Part shown: in pieces, positions 143-5,605 of the stretch
Layout of the letters: each line of letters opens with the position of its first letter
Numbering within the stretch: position 1 is the first letter of the stretch
Virus record (IMG/VR): IMGVR_UViG_3300035492_000268
Span: 1-5,605 of that record
Direction: 5' to 3' (one strand)
Length of the DNA: 5,605 nucleotides
Origin: a virus
The notes under the pieces: model-generated
Database searches by the model: none
Told to the model about the DNA's origin: nothing
What the model saw: only the letters and a program-made list of their open reading frames with translations
Program-made: the position numbers and the translations under genes

Positions 143-1618
143 ATGCGGTTCGCTCTGCTGTTGCTCACGTTTATGGCCGCGCCTGTATTCGCTGTGGACT
201 ACTACTGGCAGGTCCAGGGTGTTAGTGGTCAGTTCCCGTCCGCAATGGAGGCGTGCCGCGCCGCCTATCCTGCGCCCGTAGTCGGCAAATATGAGACCGC
301 GACACTCGATGGTTTTTCCGATGATCCCGGCTCGTCGAACCCGTCGTATTTCCAGTGCGACATCAAACACACCTCCAACACCAATTTGTGGGAACCCTAT
401 TACACCTACGTCCCGCTGTATCGCTGGGGTGACGGCTGTCCTGCAGGAACCACATACGACGAGCAAACCGGTGGGTGCCCGGTTACTAGCGAGCCAAACG
501 GCGAGGCCTGCGAAATTGAGGGTCAAACGCCGCTGACGGGGTTCGGATTCATTCGTGACGCATCAGGGCAGTGCGTCGATTACGCGCGGGCCGATCTGCC
601 CAGTCAGTGCCGTGCGCTCGCCAATACGTCGGGGTTCACCGACGTGCGCGTCGATTTCGATTCGGACGGCAACCCGCAAACACCCCCTCCAATGGACGTC
701 GGCGGCTGTGCCGGTCAGGTGGTGACGGTTGAACATTGCGAAATGGCCCCTCAGCGCTGCCAGAACGGTTTGTGCATGCAATCGAGCAGCAATCGGTGCC
801 GCGTCGCTGTTTCGTTCAACGGGGAGGTCGCGGGCGATTCGTCGCCGCTGGTGATCAAGGGGCAGGACGGCTCCGAAGAGGGCATTTGCCCTCCGGGCGA
901 AAACTGCGATCCAGAACCCGCGCCCGTCCAGAAAGAAGAGCAGCCGTGCAATTACGTTGAGGACGGCGAGGGCCGCATGGTCTGTTCGGCAACAAAATGG
1001 ACGGCAGAACCGGGTCAGCAATCGTGCGGAACAGTCAACGGCAAATTCGATTGCTACGGTCGTGCGCCAACGTCGAACGGCATTCAGATCGACACCAAAA
1101 TCGAAACGAAACCGAACGCTACGGGTGGCACGACCACCACGAAAACCGACACCCACACGCAAACAATTTGCACGGGGGCGAACTCGTGCACGACCACGAC
1201 CACGGTTACTGTCAACCGCACGGACAAAAACGCTGCCGGCGAAACGACAGGCCAGTCCAGCACCTGTACCGGCCCAAAATGCGCAGGTACTGGCAAAACG
1301 GACTCTGACGGTGATGGGCTTGAGGATGAACCGGACGAACCGGGGTTCGTTCCGCCCGAGGCCGGCGACGAGGTGGGGGGATTTGGCGAATCCGCTCAGG
1401 AGTTTATGACGCGGCTCGAATCCGCTCCAATCGTTTCGGGCGTCTCTGGCATCAGTGTTCCGGGCGGCGGGTCATGTTCATTCCCGAGCGCTCAAACGGC
1501 CATTGGCACGATCTCTATGGATTCGTTTTGCGATCTCGCGTCGGTGCTCGACAACCTGCGCGGCGTGTTTCTCGCCGTCTGGGCGCTCGCGGCTGTGCGC
1601 GTTCTGATGTCTGCGTAA
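143..1618 (+). CDS. pIII-like minor coat / host-adsorption protein (491 aa precursor)
   Basis: The ORF is open from 95. I prefer ATG 143 (SD-like GGTGGTGA at 133-140) because it yields a canonical signal peptide, MRFALLLLTFMAAPVFA|VD. The mature protein has 24 Cys by my count and a Thr-rich linker (about 1118-1300). It also has an acidic DSDGDGLEDEPD motif (1301-1336) and a C-terminal hydrophobic anchor GVFLAVWALAAVRVLMSA. It sits between the coat terminator and the pVI/pI-like genes. Confidence 0.8.
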   Translation: MRFALLLLTFMAAPVFAVDYYWQVQGVSGQFPSAMEACRAAYPAPVVGKYETATLDGFSDDPGSSNPSYFQCDIKHTSNTNLWEPYYTYVPLYRWGDGCPAGTTYDEQTGGCPVTSEPNGEACEIEGQTPLTGFGFIRDASGQCVDYARADLPSQCRALANTSGFTDVRVDFDSDGNPQTPPPMDVGGCAGQVVTVEHCEMAPQRCQNGLCMQSSSNRCRVAVSFNGEVAGDSSPLVIKGQDGSEEGICPPGENCDPEPAPVQKEEQPCNYVEDGEGRMVCSATKWTAEPGQQSCGTVNGKFDCYGRAPTSNGIQIDTKIETKPNATGGTTTTKTDTHTQTICTGANSCTTTTTVTVNRTDKNAAGETTGQSSTCTGPKCAGTGKTDSDGDGLEDEPDEPGFVPPEAGDEVGGFGESAQEFMTRLESAPIVSGVSGISVPGGGSCSFPSAQTAIGTISMDSFCDLASVLDNLRGVFLAVWALAAVRVLMSA

Positions 1619-1630
1619 TGGGGGTGTGAC

Positions 1631-1906
1631 GTGGGTGAAATGCTGTCTGATTTCGCAAAATGGCTGGCCGACCTGCTGCTCTGGGTGCCGCGCAAGCTCT
1701 GGGCTGAACTGCTAGACGGTTTGGCGTCCATCGTCGAGGCGATCCCTGTGCCTGATTTCGTTTCGACGGCGCAGTCGGCGTTTGCCTCTATACCGTCGAG
1801 CGTGTTGTTTTTCGCTGACAAATTCGCGGTCGCTGAGGGTGTTGCGATGATTCTCGCCGCCTACGGACTGCGGTTTGTCATCCGCCGTATTCCGCTGATT
1901 GGGTGA
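1631..1906 (+). CDS. pVI-like small membrane / minor coat protein (91 aa)
   Basis: GTG at 1631 lies 6 nt after GGGGG (1620-1624); ATG 1640 is an alternative start. The protein has amphipathic or hydrophobic helices (LADLLLWV, GVAMILAAYGLRFVI) and a basic C-terminus. Size and position between the pIII-like and pI-like genes match gVI of filamentous phages. I expect a DUF2523-type hit but did not test this. Confidence 0.7.
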   Translation: MGEMLSDFAKWLADLLLWVPRKLWAELLDGLASIVEAIPVPDFVSTAQSAFASIPSSVLFFADKFAVAEGVAMILAAYGLRFVIRRIPLIG

Positions 1907-1909
1907 CGT

Positions 1910-3112
1910 ATGGCGATCGACGCATATACCGGCCTGCCGCGTAGCGGCAAATCGTATTCGGTCATCAAAAACGTGGTGTTGCCATCGCTGCGCGAGGGTC
2001 GCCATGTGTACACCAACATTCCGTTGACGGACGTTCTCACCGGCGAGTTTCCGGACCAGTGCCACCAGCTCGGGTCGGACTGGTTCACTGATAAAGAGCT
2101 TTTCCAGAAAATGCCGCACGGGGCTGTTGTCGTTCTGGACGAACTCTGGCGACGCTGGCCGGCTGGCATGAAGGCGAATGCCGTTCCGTTCGAAGATAAG
2201 GAATTTTTGGCAGAGCACGGCCACTTGGTTGACGAGAACGGCAAAACCACTCGCGTGGTGCTCGTGACGCAGGATTTGGCTCAGATCGCCAGTTTCGCCC
2301 GGCAGCTGGTGGCGATGACATATCGCACGACGAAACTCGACGCCGTGGGTGCCAAAAACCGTTTCCGGGTTGACGTTTATCAGGGGGCTGTCACGGGGCA
2401 GAAACCCCCGGCTGCGCAGCTGATCCGCTCTACGTTTGATCAATACGAAGAGTCGGTTTACCGCTATTACCGCAGCAGCACCAAATCTCAGACCGGCGAC
2501 GTGGGTGACGAATCTCGGGCGGACAAACGAGCGAACATTTGGCGGTCGCCGTTCATCATTTTTTCGATGGTCGCACCTGTCCTGCTGATCCCGTTGTTGC
2601 TGTGGTATATCTCGGGCCTGTTCAGTTCAGGCATTGGCGTTGCTGACAAGGCGTCGGCGGCGTCGTCTCACGAATCGGAGTTGGTAAACCCACCACCGCC
2701 ATCGGCCCAGCCGATACCGCAGCCAGCGGTTCAGGTCGTTGAGGTTCCTCGCGGGCCGGTCGAGTCTGGCATCTGGCGCGTTGTCGGTTCCATTCAGCGT
2801 GATGTGCCAGACGCTCACGCCATGGGCGATCAGGTAATTTTGAGGTCTGTTTACGGTGCCCTGCGATACGTCGCCACGACCGACTGCGACCAGTATCAGG
2901 ACGGGATCAATTGGACGTGCGAGATCGACGGCCAACTGGTCACACCCTGGACGGGAAACGGGTCATCAACGGGTTGGGCATCTGACGGAACGCAACTGGT
3001 TGCCAGGACTGCCAGCGTTGCGAGCGGAGCGACCAACGTCGGCAGCACTGGCAACCATAGCGCACCGCCGTCCTCCGCTCCGGTAAACCCTGCCCCGCCC
3101 GGAGTGCTCTAA
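1910..3112 (+). CDS. Zot / pI-like phage assembly P-loop ATPase (400 aa)
   Basis: N-terminal Walker A GLPRSGKS (1931-1954) and Walker B-like VVVLDE (2126-2143). A single TM helix FIIFSMVAPVLLIPLLLWYISGLF (2552-2623) is followed by a tail of about 160 aa with Pro-rich stretches (NPPPPSAQPIPQP). This is the architecture of the Zot family (PF05707). Confidence 0.93.
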   Translation: MAIDAYTGLPRSGKSYSVIKNVVLPSLREGRHVYTNIPLTDVLTGEFPDQCHQLGSDWFTDKELFQKMPHGAVVVLDELWRRWPAGMKANAVPFEDKEFLAEHGHLVDENGKTTRVVLVTQDLAQIASFARQLVAMTYRTTKLDAVGAKNRFRVDVYQGAVTGQKPPAAQLIRSTFDQYEESVYRYYRSSTKSQTGDVGDESRADKRANIWRSPFIIFSMVAPVLLIPLLLWYISGLFSSGIGVADKASAASSHESELVNPPPPSAQPIPQPAVQVVEVPRGPVESGIWRVVGSIQRDVPDAHAMGDQVILRSVYGALRYVATTDCDQYQDGINWTCEIDGQLVTPWTGNGSSTGWASDGTQLVARTASVASGATNVGSTGNHSAPPSSAPVNPAPPGVL

Positions 3113-3121
3113 TGCGATATG

Positions 3122-3307
3122 AGGGTCGCTAATGCTCATACATTCGGATTGGCTGAGAGTTTCCACGGAGTTGCGTATTCTCACGCTTCTTCTTCTGCGT
3201 TCATCCCCGCTTGATCTCTCGTCGAGTCAAGGGGCTGACCGGAGGCCGCAGCCACCGACACGCTTTATCGTCGGTGGACCGGGTGAGGATCAGAGCGTAG
3301 CGACCCT
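3122..3307. repeat. Long-range inverted repeat closing an intergenic structural domain
   Basis: AGGGTCGCTA (3122-3131) is the exact reverse complement of TAGCGACCCT (3298-3307). The pairing extends across a small bulge to GCTC (3134-3137) / GAGC (3293-3296). The enclosed segment contains two further hairpins. Confidence 0.5.
3252..3277. other. Perfect 8-bp stem hairpin in the intergenic region
   Basis: CCACCGAC (3252-3259) / GTCGGTGG (3270-3277) with the 10-nt loop ACGCTTTATC. It is a candidate ori or packaging hairpin in the ssDNA form. Confidence 0.5.
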
Positions 3308-3428
3308 TGACCCTCCCCGACCCGCTTAACCTCCGCTAGGGAGAGCAGGGGACGCCTTTCCCCCTGCGCTCCCGCCGCGTCGCAAGCGAGACCCGCCGGA
3401 GGCGCTTTTCGCCTTTGTGTTGCCTTTT

Positions 3429-3449
3429 CTACTCCGCGCGAGTAGTTTT
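3429..3449 (+). terminator. Weak terminator-like hairpin upstream of rep
   Basis: CTACTC (3429-3434) / GAGTAG (3440-3445) with loop CGCGC, followed by TTTT (3446-3449). The stem is short and the T-tract modest. An A8 run follows at 3459-3466. Confidence 0.3.
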
Positions 3450-3542
3450 CTCGGGACGAAAAAAAACGCGCCACCCCGTTCCCAGCAGATAGCGCGCTCT
3501 CTAGACAAGACGCAGGATAGATAGGAACGGCGGACGGCGCAA

Positions 3543-4553
3543 GTGCCACTTGCAACGGAACCCGCACCTGTGTCGTACATTCCCCCGCTTTCCCCGCTCG
3601 ATTTCCTGTCGCGCGATCAGCTCCGCCAATATGTTGCCAATCGTCGGGCTGACGCGATCAGCCGCGAAGCGGCGCAAGCGCCCGAAGGGCGCGGGCTTGT
3701 CCATATAAAAACAACTGGAACGCCCGTTAAAAAAACGCCCACGATCTGCCAGCGGCCGAGCTGTGAAACCGGAGTGCCGCAGCCGCATGAGTGGGGCTGC
3801 AGCATTCCGACCAAAACGTGGCCGGTCGACGAAAACGCCATCGAGATTGACCAACAGGCTATGCGCCTGCGCCGCCTGAAAAAAAACGTGATCACGACGG
3901 CTCGCATGCACTCCAGGGCGATGCAAAATCGCCAGCACCACGCGCTCATGGTCACGCTGACCTATCGGCCCGGTGTCGACTGGCAGCCTGAGCATGTTTC
4001 CGAGTACATCCGGCGCGTGCGGCAGTGGTACAAGCGCAAGGGGCATGTGGTCCGTTACGTCTGGGTTCTGGAGCTCACCAAAGCGGGGCGCCCGCATTAC
4101 CATTGCCTGTTCTGGCACCCTGCCGGCCGTGGCCTCTCCATGCCGAAAGCGGATCGTCGCGGCTGGTGGCCACACGGCATGACTCGCACCGAACGTGCAC
4201 GGAACGCGGTGGGATATCTGGCCAAATATGCGTCGAAAGGGACGGACGATGTGATGCCGAAAGGGGCTCGGCTTTACGGCGTCGGCGGCCTGTCCATGGC
4301 TCACCGTCTCGAACGTGCGTGGTGGAACCTCCCGGTCACGGTGCGTCGTTGGGGATTTCCTGCTGACCGTTGGCGGCGATCGTCTGGTGGCGGCTGGGTC
4401 TGCCGGGCGACCGGCGAGCACCGCGACCCGTGCTGGCGGGTGATTCTGCACGGATATCGGGTATTCGTCGTTCCACGTCAGCAACCCACGCGGTCACCAT
4501 TTGATGAACTGCTGTCATCATTGGCGTGCCCGTGGCAACGCATGCCAATTTGA
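3543..4553 (+). CDS. Rolling-circle replication initiator, HUH superfamily with a two-tyrosine motif (up to 336 aa)
   Basis: Motif 1 is MVTLTY (3948-3965). Motif 2 is HYH in RPHYHCLFW (4095-4103). Motif 3 is VGYLAKYASK, with Tyr codons at 4215-4217 and 4227-4229. The start is uncertain. The ORF opens at GTG 3543 with only a weak SD, the first in-frame ATG is at 3861, and others lie at 3906 and 3921. Confidence 0.88.
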   Translation: MPLATEPAPVSYIPPLSPLDFLSRDQLRQYVANRRADAISREAAQAPEGRGLVHIKTTGTPVKKTPTICQRPSCETGVPQPHEWGCSIPTKTWPVDENAIEIDQQAMRLRRLKKNVITTARMHSRAMQNRQHHALMVTLTYRPGVDWQPEHVSEYIRRVRQWYKRKGHVVRYVWVLELTKAGRPHYHCLFWHPAGRGLSMPKADRRGWWPHGMTRTERARNAVGYLAKYASKGTDDVMPKGARLYGVGGLSMAHRLERAWWNLPVTVRRWGFPADRWRRSSGGGWVCRATGEHRDPCWRVILHGYRVFVVPRQQPTRSPFDELLSSLACPWQRMPI

Positions 4554-4596
4554 ATCGCCGGTGCAGATCATCGTCGTCGAGTTTCAGTGATTTCAT
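4336..4596 (-). CDS. Ribbon-helix-helix (Arc/CopG/MetJ-type) transcriptional regulator, putative phage repressor (86 aa)
   Basis: The N-terminus MKSLKLDDDDLHRRFKLACVATGTPMMTAVHQMVTAWVAD fits the RHH pattern: a short beta strand, helix A, a G-x turn and helix B. A strong SD, GAGGGGGG, lies 3 nt before the ATG (complement of 4594-4596). It is divergent from the structural operon promoter. The C-terminal half is low complexity and antisense to rep. Confidence 0.7.
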   Translation of the reverse strand: MKSLKLDDDDLHRRFKLACVATGTPMMTAVHQMVTAWVADVERRIPDIRAESPASTGRGARRSPGRPSRHQTIAANGQQEIPNDAP

Positions 4597-4609
4597 GGGC
4601 CCCCCTCTG

Positions 4610-4624
4610 CTGAACTCTGTTCAG
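4610..4624. promoter_or_regulatory. Palindromic candidate operator in the leader of the RHH gene
   Basis: CTGAAC-TCT-GTTCAG (4610-4624) lies 14 nt upstream of the RHH start codon on the minus strand. A third GTTCA half-site is at 4659-4663. Confidence 0.4.
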
Positions 4625-4670
4625 TGTGGGCGATTTTTTGACCGGGATCACACGAAAAGTTCACAAGTGT

Positions 4671-4710
4671 AAAAAAAGAGTTGACACTTCGTTTCGGGGC
4701 GTTCTACTTT
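4671..4710 (+). promoter_or_regulatory. Candidate sigma70-type promoter of the ssDNA-binding/coat operon
   Basis: Consensus -35 TTGACA (4681-4686) is preceded by an A7 UP-like tract (4671-4677). Candidate -10 elements are TACTTT (4705-4710, 18-nt spacer) or CTACTT (17-nt spacer). It lies about 55 nt upstream of the ssDNA-binding gene start. Confidence 0.5.
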
Positions 4711-4718
4711 TCGCCCCG
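4695..4718. promoter_or_regulatory. GC-rich inverted repeat bracketing the putative -10
   Basis: CGGGGCG (4695-4701) / CGCCCCG (4712-4718) has a 10-nt loop containing TTCTACTTTT. It could be an operator, or an attenuator for read-through from rep. Confidence 0.35.
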
Positions 4719-4743
4719 TTGCAATTTCTACTCTGCTCAAAAT

Positions 4744-4753
4744 TCACATGTGA
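4744..4753. promoter_or_regulatory. Perfect 10-bp palindrome overlapping the ribosome-binding site of the ssDNA-binding gene
   Basis: TCACATGTGA (4744-4753) overlaps GAGG (4752-4755). TCACA half-sites also occur at 4648-4652 and 4661-4665. Confidence 0.4.
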
Positions 4754-4764
4754 GGTTTTCCACA

Positions 4765-5046
4765 ATGCCACGAATTGAAATCGAGTCCACGCAGATCAAG
4801 GAGCGGTCGGGTAAATCCGAACGTACCGGCCGTGAATACAACATCCGCGAGCAGCAGGCGCTCCTGTTCAAGGCAGGCTCTCGCTATCCCGACAAAATCA
4901 AAATTACGCTCGACGAGGATGCTCGCCCGTACCCGGTCGGCGTTTATGAACTCGATGACGAGTCGTTCTACCCGTCTCGTTACGGCAGCCTCGAGGTTCG
5001 CCCCGTGCTGGTCCCGGTGGCGGCAGCCGTTAAGGCCGCGTCGTGA
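4765..5046 (+). CDS. pV-like single-stranded DNA-binding protein (93 aa)
   Basis: I chose ATG 4765, which has GAGG 9 nt upstream, over the ORF-track TTG at 4681, which coincides with the -35 box. The product is small and beta-rich, and resembles the Pf3/Ff gene V type: IEIESTQIKERSGKSERTGREYNIREQQALLF...PYPVGVYELDDESFYPSRYGSLEVRP. It lies directly after rep and before the coat module. Confidence 0.78.
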   Translation: MPRIEIESTQIKERSGKSERTGREYNIREQQALLFKAGSRYPDKIKITLDEDARPYPVGVYELDDESFYPSRYGSLEVRPVLVPVAAAVKAAS

Positions 5047-5132
5047 TGTGGGCCGCGACCATCAATCTTGCGATCTGGGTCGGCGTCTGTTTCGTCGTCT
5101 GCGTCGTCGTGCGTGATTGGGCGCGGTCATGA
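5046..5132 (+). CDS. 28-aa hydrophobic mini-protein, pVII/pIX-like candidate (MWAATINLAIWVGVCFVVCVVVRDWARS)
   Basis: Its ATG overlaps the upstream TGA (TGATG at 5044-5048), and AAGG lies 10 nt upstream. It has a single TM helix and a basic tail. Its stop overlaps the next start as ATGA (5129-5132). Size and position match the small minor coat genes of filamentous phages. Confidence 0.5.
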   Translation: MWAATINLAIWVGVCFVVCVVVRDWARS

Positions 5133-5353
5133 GTTCCGGCGTTCTGCGTTGTGATGGTGACGTTCTCGTCGCCACCGACGGTGCGCCATTGTGTTCAGGG
5201 GCGTGGGTACTCGTTCCCGTTCCCGAACCGTTCACCGTCGAGGCGCTCGACCCGTCGCAAATGGCGGATGCGTTTTCGGCGGGGTTCGTAATTGTGGGCA
5301 CCTGCTGGGCTGTTGGCTGGGCTGCTCGCGCACTTCTTTCGATGATCAAATGA
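5129..5353 (+). CDS. 74-aa membrane protein with a coat-like C-terminal anchor
   Basis: ATG 5129 is translationally coupled to the preceding mini-ORF. The N-terminal part has two Cys (CDGDVLVATDGAPLC). The C-terminus has the TM helix FSAGFVIVGTCWAVGWAA and a basic tail ending ARALLSMIK, close to the coat C-terminus ARKLLGMIK. Confidence 0.62.
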   Translation: MSSGVLRCDGDVLVATDGAPLCSGAWVLVPVPEPFTVEALDPSQMADAFSAGFVIVGTCWAVGWAARALLSMIK

Positions 5354-5363
5354 GGTTCAGACC

Positions 5364-5492
5364 ATGGATGCAATCGTCTCTGCTGTTAGCGTCACCGACG
5401 TCGTTACTGGCATCGGCTCCATCGCCGCTGTTATCGCTCTGGCTCTCGTCGCCCGCATGGGTGCACGCAAGTTGCTCGGGATGATCAAGTAA
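5364..5492 (+). CDS. Major coat protein, pVIII-like, 42 aa with no signal peptide (MDAIVSAVSVTDVVTGIGSIAAVIALALVARMGARKLLGMIK)
   Basis: It is below the ORF-track size cutoff. GAGG (5352-5355) lies 8 nt before ATG 5364. The product has the classical tripartite coat design: an acidic N-terminus (D2, D12), a hydrophobic core, and a basic C-terminus (R31, R35, K36, K42). It is followed by the strongest terminator in the genome. In lacking a leader peptide it resembles the Pf3 coat. Confidence 0.82.
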   Translation: MDAIVSAVSVTDVVTGIGSIAAVIALALVARMGARKLLGMIK

Positions 5493-5605
5493 CACGCTGA
5501 TCTGGGGCCTCCGGGCCCCTTTTTTTTTGAGGGTTCCCCGTCCATGGAACAGTTGTATCTGCTTGCGATGTTTTGCGTTGGCGCTGCCTCTGCGTTTCTC
5601 GTTTT
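5479..5605. repeat. Terminal direct repeat, copy 2 (identical to 1-127)
   Basis: Same comparison as for copy 1. The offset of 5,478 bp defines the genome unit length. Confidence 0.97.
5504..5528 (+). terminator. Rho-independent terminator downstream of the major coat gene (copy next to the intact gene)
   Basis: Same GGGGCC-TCCG-GGCCCC-T9 element, 12 nt after the TAA at 5490-5492. A strong terminator after the coat gene is the classical Ff-type arrangement. Confidence 0.85.

Follow-up and report, generated by a model that had tools for sequence, protein, structure and literature searches.

The DNA analysed here, a stretch of 5,605 nt from virus record IMGVR_UViG_3300035492_000268 that we call the window, begins with 127 bases that recur exactly at its end. 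The repeated unit is therefore a circle of 5,478 nt with 59.5% G+C, and the window is the complete circular genome of an uncultured filamentous phage (inovirus). Its plus-strand ORFs are all inovirus core genes. The gene of interest, which encodes a ribbon-helix-helix (RHH) protein, is located on the minus strand between rep and gene V, and its transcription leads away from gene V and enters rep at the 3' end. The genes and the translation signal of the RHH gene are the following.

143-1618, plus strand: pIII-like protein
1631-1906, plus strand: pVI
1910-3112, plus strand: Zot/pI assembly protein, the only NTPase among the ORFs of the genome
3543-4553, plus strand: rep, rolling-circle initiator (PF23343 REP_ORF2-G2P, E=4e-34), convergent with the RHH gene
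4336-4596, minus strand: complete RHH ORF, 86 aa plus stop (stop codon 4336-4338, ATG 4594-4596)
4600-4608, minus strand: Shine-Dalgarno sequence AGAGGGGGG, 3 nt before the RHH ATG, as read from the sequence
4765-5046, plus strand: gene V (pV), ssDNA-binding protein (PF02303, E=1.2e-17), which heads the operon divergent from the RHH gene
plus strand, listed without coordinates: two small ORFs
5364-5492, plus strand: major coat protein, with a strong terminator directly after it

The boundaries proposed in the initial annotation (an ATG-initiated ORF of 86 aa at 4336-4596 on the minus strand and rep at 3543-4553) were found to be correct, as were the Rep tail that it quoted and the overlap of 218 nt (4336-4553, about 72 rep codons). 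The 14 codons that it placed outside rep correspond to 43 nt (14 codons plus 1 nt), and its distance of 41 nt between the rep stop codon and the start is off by at most 1, since 40 bases separate the rep stop from the ATG. It had also described this ORF as the only credible minus-strand gene, which agrees with our finding that no other minus-strand ORF in the window matches any family. The RHH protein is the sole DNA-binding candidate in the genome.

Among named phages the closest are Cf1c, XacF1, Xf109 and phiLf, all filamentous phages of Xanthomonas, whose Rep proteins are ~43% identical to that of the window over residues ~100-315. A megablast search of the genome against deposited phages gave no match at the nucleotide level, and neither the Rfam scan nor the tRNA scan of the window returned anything.

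Assignment of the protein to the RHH superfamily

The regions of the two overlapping proteins that are referred to throughout are defined as follows.

4459-4596, minus strand: RHH domain, aa 1-46 (extended/beta segment aa 2-8, helix A 9-22, helix B from 26)
4336-4458, minus strand: RHH C-terminal tail, aa 47-86, antisense to conserved Rep residues 265-305
4488-4553, plus strand: Rep C-terminal extension, residues ~316-336 plus stop, antisense to the RHH helices

The 86-aa product had been proposed to be an RHH protein, and our profile searches uphold this assignment. Pfam ParG (PF09274) matches aa 8-40 with 24.3 bits against a gathering score of 21.4, RHH_10 scores just under its threshold, and the two matches together fall on aa 4-46. 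With a profile of the RHH family, ParG of TP228 (1p94) was retrieved from the PDB with E=3.9e-5, query aa 8-40 aligning with ParG 42-74, and 7 of 9 lineage domains independently matched ParG with E<=0.01. The AF2 monomer model has aa 1-8 extended, helices at 9-22 and 26-51, and disorder over aa 52-86; the pLDDT is ~93 over aa 11-40 and < 50 in the C-terminal tail. Foldseek comparison of the model with the PDB returned RHH proteins nearly throughout (CopA_SO, MazE6, AtaR, Arc, NikR, TacA), with TM up to 0.79 over 44-46 columns and E-values that are not significant, the domain being so small. The N-terminal beta-strand and two helices in ~45 residues that characterize the RHH (MetJ/Arc) superfamily are thus found both by the profiles and in the AF2 model, and together they indicate that the ORF encodes a genuine small RHH DNA-binding protein.

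An exhaustive HMMER search of 1.84 billion representatives with the RHH profile gave only 10 clusters below 1e-10; ~100 remote matches, mostly proteins of 45-70 aa, covered only profile positions 1-46. The functional part of the protein is its first ~46 residues. Among PHROGs the only match was a weak one (phrog_1016, E=0.05), and NCBIfam gave no match for the RHH or Rep protein of the window, with two RHH relatives scoring far below the cutoff. A tblastn search with the RHH protein against deposited phages and a scan of the genome collection with the RHH alignment both found nothing.

Because the best profile and PDB matches are ParG, and weak tblastn matches in plasmids fall on genes annotated as ParG, the protein could be thought of as a ParG-type centromere-binding adaptor that aids segregation of the episomal replicative form. 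No ParA/ParF-type partner is present among the ORFs of the 5.5-kb genome, however, and the RHH domain begins at residue 1-2, so that the ~30-aa N-terminal tail that stimulates ParF is missing; moreover, the similarity spans only the two helices common to many RHH proteins. With both the N-terminal tail and the ParA partner absent, we rejected a partition role as very unlikely. Many of the Foldseek neighbours (CopA_SO, MazE6, AtaR, TacA) are antitoxins, and an N-terminal DNA-binding domain followed by a disordered tail is a layout that would fit an RHH-type antitoxin with a toxin-binding tail. The tail is nevertheless unconserved and of variable length, and there is no co-oriented downstream gene; the minus strand past 4336 is antisense rep, with no ORF that matches a family. 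An antitoxin that lacks a toxin partner was rejected as more improbable still.

Conservation of the RHH gene among related phages

Homologs of the RHH protein were found only in the closest Rep clade, with Rep identity of at least 53%, in a sample made up of viral, metagenomic and read-assembly contigs and one contig from an NCBI MAG assembly. They represent about ten lineages (window/L001/L004; L002; L003; L009; L012 and its family; L014; L015; L017; L142; L144). Both ORFs are open in all of these, the RHH gene is convergent with rep in every one, and the antisense phase is always the same: the first codon positions of the two genes face each other, and Rep positions 3 and 2 stand opposite RHH positions 2 and 3, respectively. 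In most lineages the distance from the rep stop to the RHH start is 43-46 nt; it is 76 nt in L017 and 94-96 nt in L142. A GAGG/GGAG-type motif precedes the start in almost all lineages, with no more than AAGGG in L014. The position of the RHH stop shifts, which gives proteins of 62-114 aa and overlaps of 95-302 nt. Gene calling went wrong in at least one relative, where rep was overlooked or broken up into false antisense ORFs.

Such conservation bears on whether 4336-4596 is a gene or merely an antisense frame left open by chance in G+C-rich sequence. When the Rep protein was held fixed and its synonymous codons were shuffled, the antisense frame remained open in 8% of trials for the 72 overlap codons and in 12% for the 40 RHH-tail codons. 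An open overlap of this length falls short of significance (p=0.08), so the length of the RHH ORF alone is not evidence of a gene. The window also contains further long antisense ORFs: an 87-codon open run just upstream in the same phase, and, in another phase, a 327-aa ORF without a family match that is broken in a 97%-identical relative. Chance does not, however, account for the RHH/ParG profile matches, for a start that is conserved with a Shine-Dalgarno-like motif in nearly every lineage, for the third-position substitution bias in the part of the RHH gene outside rep (see below), or for the 31 (L142) and 25 (L017) RHH codons that lie outside rep and are still conserved. We therefore consider a chance frame to be refuted by the comparative data and attach almost no weight to it. 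The profile matches, the retention of ORF, phase and ribosome-binding site in about ten lineages and the codon-position pattern indicate that this is a real gene.

The gene appears to travel with its neighbors. The window and L005 are 97-99% identical in rep, the RHH gene and gene V, compared with only 27% in Zot, and have unrelated coat genes. The three genes thus move as one module between morphogenesis modules, which places the RHH gene in the replication and regulation module. In the more distant relatives L024, L034 and L055 the slot between rep and gene V is occupied by a minus-strand HTH_3 gene. Relative to L144, the single 1.3-kb metagenomic contig L013 has a clean deletion of 131 nt that removes RHH codons 1 to ~25, the ribosome-binding site and upstream DNA; it stops exactly at the TTGACA block and leaves the promoter-like region of gene V intact. 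This is what a repressor-less variant would be expected to look like.

Constraint on the two frames of the overlap

In the phase described above the wobble position of each gene faces position 2 of the other, so the position that varies reveals which frame is under selection. We calculated nucleotide diversity at codon positions 1/2/3 for eight lineages.

Rep-only control, Rep frame: 0.17 / 0.13 / 0.61
RHH aa 2-14, outside rep, RHH frame: 0.23 / 0.18 / 0.64
RHH aa 31-46, RHH frame: 0.22 / 0.39 / 0.21, with no free codon position in this zone (4459-4506, opposite Rep 306-321), which appears constrained in both frames
RHH aa 47-86, RHH frame: about 0.2 / 0.47-0.57 / about 0.2
Last ~15 Rep codons, Rep frame: 0.54-0.56 at position 2 (the RHH wobble), 0.32-0.42 at position 3

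Over RHH aa 47-86 diversity peaks at RHH position 2, the Rep wobble, and hence the Rep frame sets the pattern there; the last ~15 Rep codons vary most at Rep position 2, and hence the RHH frame sets the pattern in that part. The dominant frame switches near 4490-4505, with Rep dominant upstream and RHH downstream. Substitution densities, pooled from within-family pairs with one pair per family, were as follows.

Rep-only: 14.2%, 74/83 at Rep position 3
RHH tail against Rep: 14.9%, 52/71 at Rep position 3
RHH domain against the end of Rep, 4459-4553: 8.5% (Fisher p=0.01 against Rep-only), no clear position bias
RHH-only: 15.3%, 18/25 at RHH position 3 (chi-square p=1e-4)

The initial annotation had suggested that, if both are expressed, each gene constrains the other. 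This is upheld in part at most: the substitution density falls over 4459-4553 alone, and across the overlap as a whole the suggestion fails; purifying selection on both frames does not extend throughout it. Rep-synonymous change over the RHH tail was not reduced in 3 of 4 families. It was low in the window family only (1/120 against 11/145, p=0.014), and either recent recombination or a local effect would explain this. Because the suppression is seen in the window family and not in the three others we do not generalize it, although it means that the RHH tail may not be wholly neutral in that family.

The earlier suspicion that the Arg/Pro/Gly-rich second half of the protein may be a by-product of the overlap was borne out: this half is predicted to be disordered, the total length of the protein ranges over 62-114 aa, and the tail varies at RHH position 2. 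The RHH tail thus appears to be passenger sequence of variable length. A similar case can be made for the end of Rep. Alignments with the Xanthomonas phage Reps and with PHROG 2969 end at residues 308-316, the Rep of Xf109 itself ends near the equivalent of these residues and abuts gene V, and Rep stops 9 codons earlier in L017 and ~17 codons earlier in L142. By these comparisons, the last ~20 Rep residues are a lineage-specific extension that the Xanthomonas phage Reps lack. As read from the sequence, the conserved Rep residues P-F-D (319-321) within it face RHH residues H31 to M33 and a portion of V34. Q32-M33 is invariant and largely determines F320 and the bases on either side, so the conservation of P-F-D may come from the other strand.

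Since the RHH tail and the C-terminal end of Rep are both add-ons, core sequence would lie against core sequence over only ~30-50 nt, and the dual-coding aspect of the locus is weaker than the length of the overlap suggests. For annotation, the lesson is that passenger tails can make up most of an antisense overlap that is both long and conserved, and that conserved motifs such as PGRPSRHQT..ANGQQE in the RHH tail or P-F-D in the Rep tail can merely mirror selection on the opposite strand.

The region between the RHH gene and gene V

The RHH gene is adjacent to and divergent from the operon that it would control (RHH start 4596, gene V start 4765). The features of the region between the two starts are listed below.

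4597-4764, no strand assigned: 168 bp from the RHH start to gene V, presumed to hold divergent promoters and operators and possibly an origin element
4610-4624, no strand assigned: inverted repeat CTGAAC-tct-GTTCAG in the RHH leader
4695-4718, plus strand: hairpin CGGGGCG / TTCTACTTTT / CGCCCCG that carries the conserved TTCTACT (fold of -16.1 kcal/mol, z=-4.5)

The region has a conserved architecture: TGAC-N39-TGAC, an A-tract at 4671-4677, TTGACA at 4681-4686 and, after 16 nt, TCTACT at 4703-4708. The TTCTACT motif of the hairpin recurs at 4726-4732. Nearly all lineages have a motif with the TCTAC core in this intergenic region, with 3-4 copies in L014/L015; L017 has no clear copy. A sigma-70 consensus scan of both strands over 3000-5605 detected no promoter, and hand-picked -35/-10 candidates for an RHH promoter were dropped because they are not conserved across lineages. 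The RHH leader stem-loop at 4590-4645 is no more stable than shuffled sequences (z=-0.2 to -0.5).

Motif and repeat searches of 4597-4764 identified no operator. The inverted repeat at 4610-4624 is kept in L004 by a double change (CTGAGC...GCTCAG) and is not conserved outside the window family. The repeats TTCACAAGTG / TTCACATGTG (4660, 4743) and CTCTGYTSA (4605, 4615, 4731) are likewise confined to the window family. As L002, L003 and L009 have the identical KSLKLD beta-strand, none of these repeats can be called the operator.

Prediction of function

We consider it probable that the RHH protein represses transcription as a dimer, at the 168 bp that separate its own start from gene V. The protein would dimerize, forming the two-stranded antiparallel ribbon with which RHH homodimers read the major groove, and bind one or more candidate operators within 4597-4764, and once bound it would repress both its own promoter and the rightward promoter of the operon that runs from gene V to the coat gene. 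Repression of this kind would set the levels of ssDNA accumulation and virion production, much as the repressor or immunity factor of a temperate or chronic inovirus does. The context that we count in favor of this role is the lack of any other DNA-binding candidate in the genome, the HTH_3 gene in the same slot of L024, L034 and L055, the deletion in L013, and the module formed by rep, the RHH gene and gene V. On this evidence, which is one of sequence and gene context, the label "repressor" is plausible.

Several observations were counted against the repressor model. The searches yielded neither an operator nor a sigma-70 consensus promoter, the intergenic repeats are not conserved across lineages with the same beta-strand residues, the deletion in L013 is known from one metagenomic contig, and ParG, the closest characterized relative, is a partition protein as well as a repressor.

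The comparative data lead us to infer that compaction of a 60% G+C genome gave rise to the 218-nt overlap as a by-product, with each gene reading on to the first stop in the antisense strand of the other. As passengers, the last ~20 Rep residues would then ride on the RHH helices and the RHH tail on conserved Rep sequence. Antisense interference through convergent transcription over rep may come on top of this.

An unlikely, though not negligible, reading is that replication, and not the structural operon, is the main target of the RHH protein, of its mRNA or of both, in the manner of copy-number control by CopG and RNA II in rolling-circle plasmids. The protein would bind near the TTCTACT hairpin and iterons, a possible plus-strand origin, or at the rep promoter, and the RHH transcript, with no terminator over ~600 nt, would act as a cis-antisense RNA and as a collision partner for rep. 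It fits this reading that Rep is a rolling-circle initiator, that rep and the RHH gene travel together and that the convergent overlap is at least 95 nt in every lineage. Past the RHH stop the only terminator-like site on the minus strand is at 3740-3718; the hairpin at 4695-4718 bears a conserved motif, and a similar motif is found near 3427, upstream of rep. The overlap nonetheless ranges in extent over 95-302 nt, and the greater part of its length evolves as though a single frame were of consequence. In addition, TTCTACT is kept in the RHH-deleted L013 and the TCTAC core persists where the beta-strand residues differ, a pattern more in keeping with a Rep site or a -10 element than with an RHH operator.

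A combination of the two roles is more doubtful still. The RHH transcript would both encode the repressor and serve as an unterminated cis-antisense RNA or collision partner against rep, with the tail of the window family gaining a selected function. If this were true, the level of the Rep initiator would be coupled inversely to expression of the repressor, in a one-gene version of CopG plus RNA II copy control held in place by the conserved convergent overlap.

With the protein read as a repressor, as we favor, a likely regulator has been identified for a clade of uncultured inoviruses that are without the usual HTH repressor module, and the junction of rep and gene V is a slot for the insertion of unrelated regulators, RHH or HTH.

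Comparison with known systems

No published account of an inovirus with a ParG-like RHH gene converging on rep turned up in our full-text literature searches. Besides its part in partition, ParG is a transcriptional autorepressor. ParG of TP228 is the best sequence match of the phage protein (1p94; PF09274), both are RHH proteins, and helices A and B align over aa 8-40. The phage protein differs in that it lacks the N-terminal flexible tail, a gene for a ParF/ParA partner and recognized centromere repeats; its disordered tail is C-terminal and unselected, and its setting is a phage and not a plasmid partition cassette. With two defining features of ParG failing, we do not file the phage protein as a ParG, although by sequence it is ParG-like.

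Arc and Mnt, from the immI region of phage P22, are RHH repressors that act at divergent promoters. Like them, the protein described here is a small phage RHH protein encoded beside a short divergently transcribed region, and Arc is among its fold matches; there is, however, no detectable sequence relationship beyond the fold, and here the phage is a filamentous ssDNA phage with operators that are only putative. In the rolling-circle plasmid pMV158, CopG is encoded upstream of repB and co-transcribed with it, and there is an antisense RNA II. The likeness consists in a small RHH regulator linked to a rolling-circle Rep gene, with antisense transcription against rep possible; the phage gene, in contrast, is downstream of rep and convergent with it, and an antisense effect is only putative.

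Within inoviruses, the HTH repressors of integrative members (the Cf1cp8-like XRE protein of Xf109 and RstR of CTXphi) are also small regulators on the strand opposite to the core genes and are likely the functional analogue of the RHH protein, with an HTH fold in place of the RHH fold. RstR is divergent from rstA. In Xf109 the regulator is upstream of rep, and rep abuts gene V directly. ORF13 of the Pseudomonas inovirus PMBT54 is likewise a predicted RHH regulator in an inovirus, described in excerpts of its report as omega-like and proposed to take part in episome maintenance or copy control (PMC10534721). It differs in belonging to the omega RHH subfamily, and the same excerpts report no overlap with rep (PMC10534721). 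Overall, the protein most resembles the small RHH repressors of phages and plasmids (Arc/Mnt, CopG, omega).

Genome completeness and modular exchange

Positions 1-127 of the window are identical to 5479-5605, and this 127-nt redundancy at the termini indicates that the window is a whole circular inovirus genome of 5,478 nt. The major coat gene is directly followed by a terminator, as is likewise the case in the Ff phages:

5504-5519, second copy at 25-40: strong intrinsic terminator with the stem-loop GGGGCC-tccg-GGCCCC and a T9 run behind it

When the whole locus was compared with that of the related contig L005, the rep, ribbon-helix-helix (RHH) and gene V proteins were found to be 97-99% identical; for Zot the figure was just 27%, and the genes for pIII, pVI and pVIII were unrelated. 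In L003, a relative with a Rep only 64% identical to that of the window, the structural genes were 40-76% identical. Judged by these identities, the relationship between the L005 and window loci is one of modular mosaicism.

Variation in the rep-gene V slot

A natural deletion of 131 nt, known from one short metagenomic contig (L013, 760-870, compared on the reverse strand with the RHH-bearing relative L144), removes the N-terminus of the RHH gene together with its upstream region and alters the final Rep residues. It spares gene V as well as the TTGACA...TTCTACTTT block. Three related inoviruses, with Rep proteins 41-47% identical, carry an HTH_3-type gene in the same slot:

L024, about 1811-2209, minus strand
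L034, about 3255-3600, minus strand
L055, 1044-1418, minus strand

All three genes encode a hydrophobic C-terminal stretch, and that of L024 overlaps the end of rep by about 100 nt.

Antisense reading frames within rep

The following candidate was rejected as a gene:

3501-4484, minus strand: antisense ORF of 327 aa inside rep

It has no family match and is split in a 97% relative, and is an artefact of G+C composition. The public gene calls for L003 (3837-4926) omit rep entirely and place two antisense ORFs of 55 and 137 aa within it, adjoining the RHH gene, an annotation error that results from the rep/RHH overlap.

Non-coding regions flanking rep

Three features were recorded on the two sides of rep:

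3113-3542: non-coding region of 430 nt, 5' of rep, with several hairpins
3397-3417 and 3429-3445: terminator-like sites among these hairpins
4695-4718: stable hairpin (z=-4.5), CGGGGCG / TTCTACTTTT / CGCCCCG

Searches of 3113-3542 for Rfam families and tRNAs gave zero matches. Parts of the region seem to be conserved in L002 and L003, as judged by the resemblance of ORF translations, and it may accommodate an origin, a packaging signal or an attachment site.

The motif inside the 4695-4718 hairpin recurs at 4726-4732, has a similar counterpart at about 3427-3445, is present in the RHH-gene V intergenic region in nearly every lineage, and is iterated 3-4 times in the relatives L014 and L015. 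The stem is not preserved in L001, a 97% relative. In shape the hairpin resembles the nick hairpin of the f1 origin, but it may just as well serve as the gene V promoter's -10 region.
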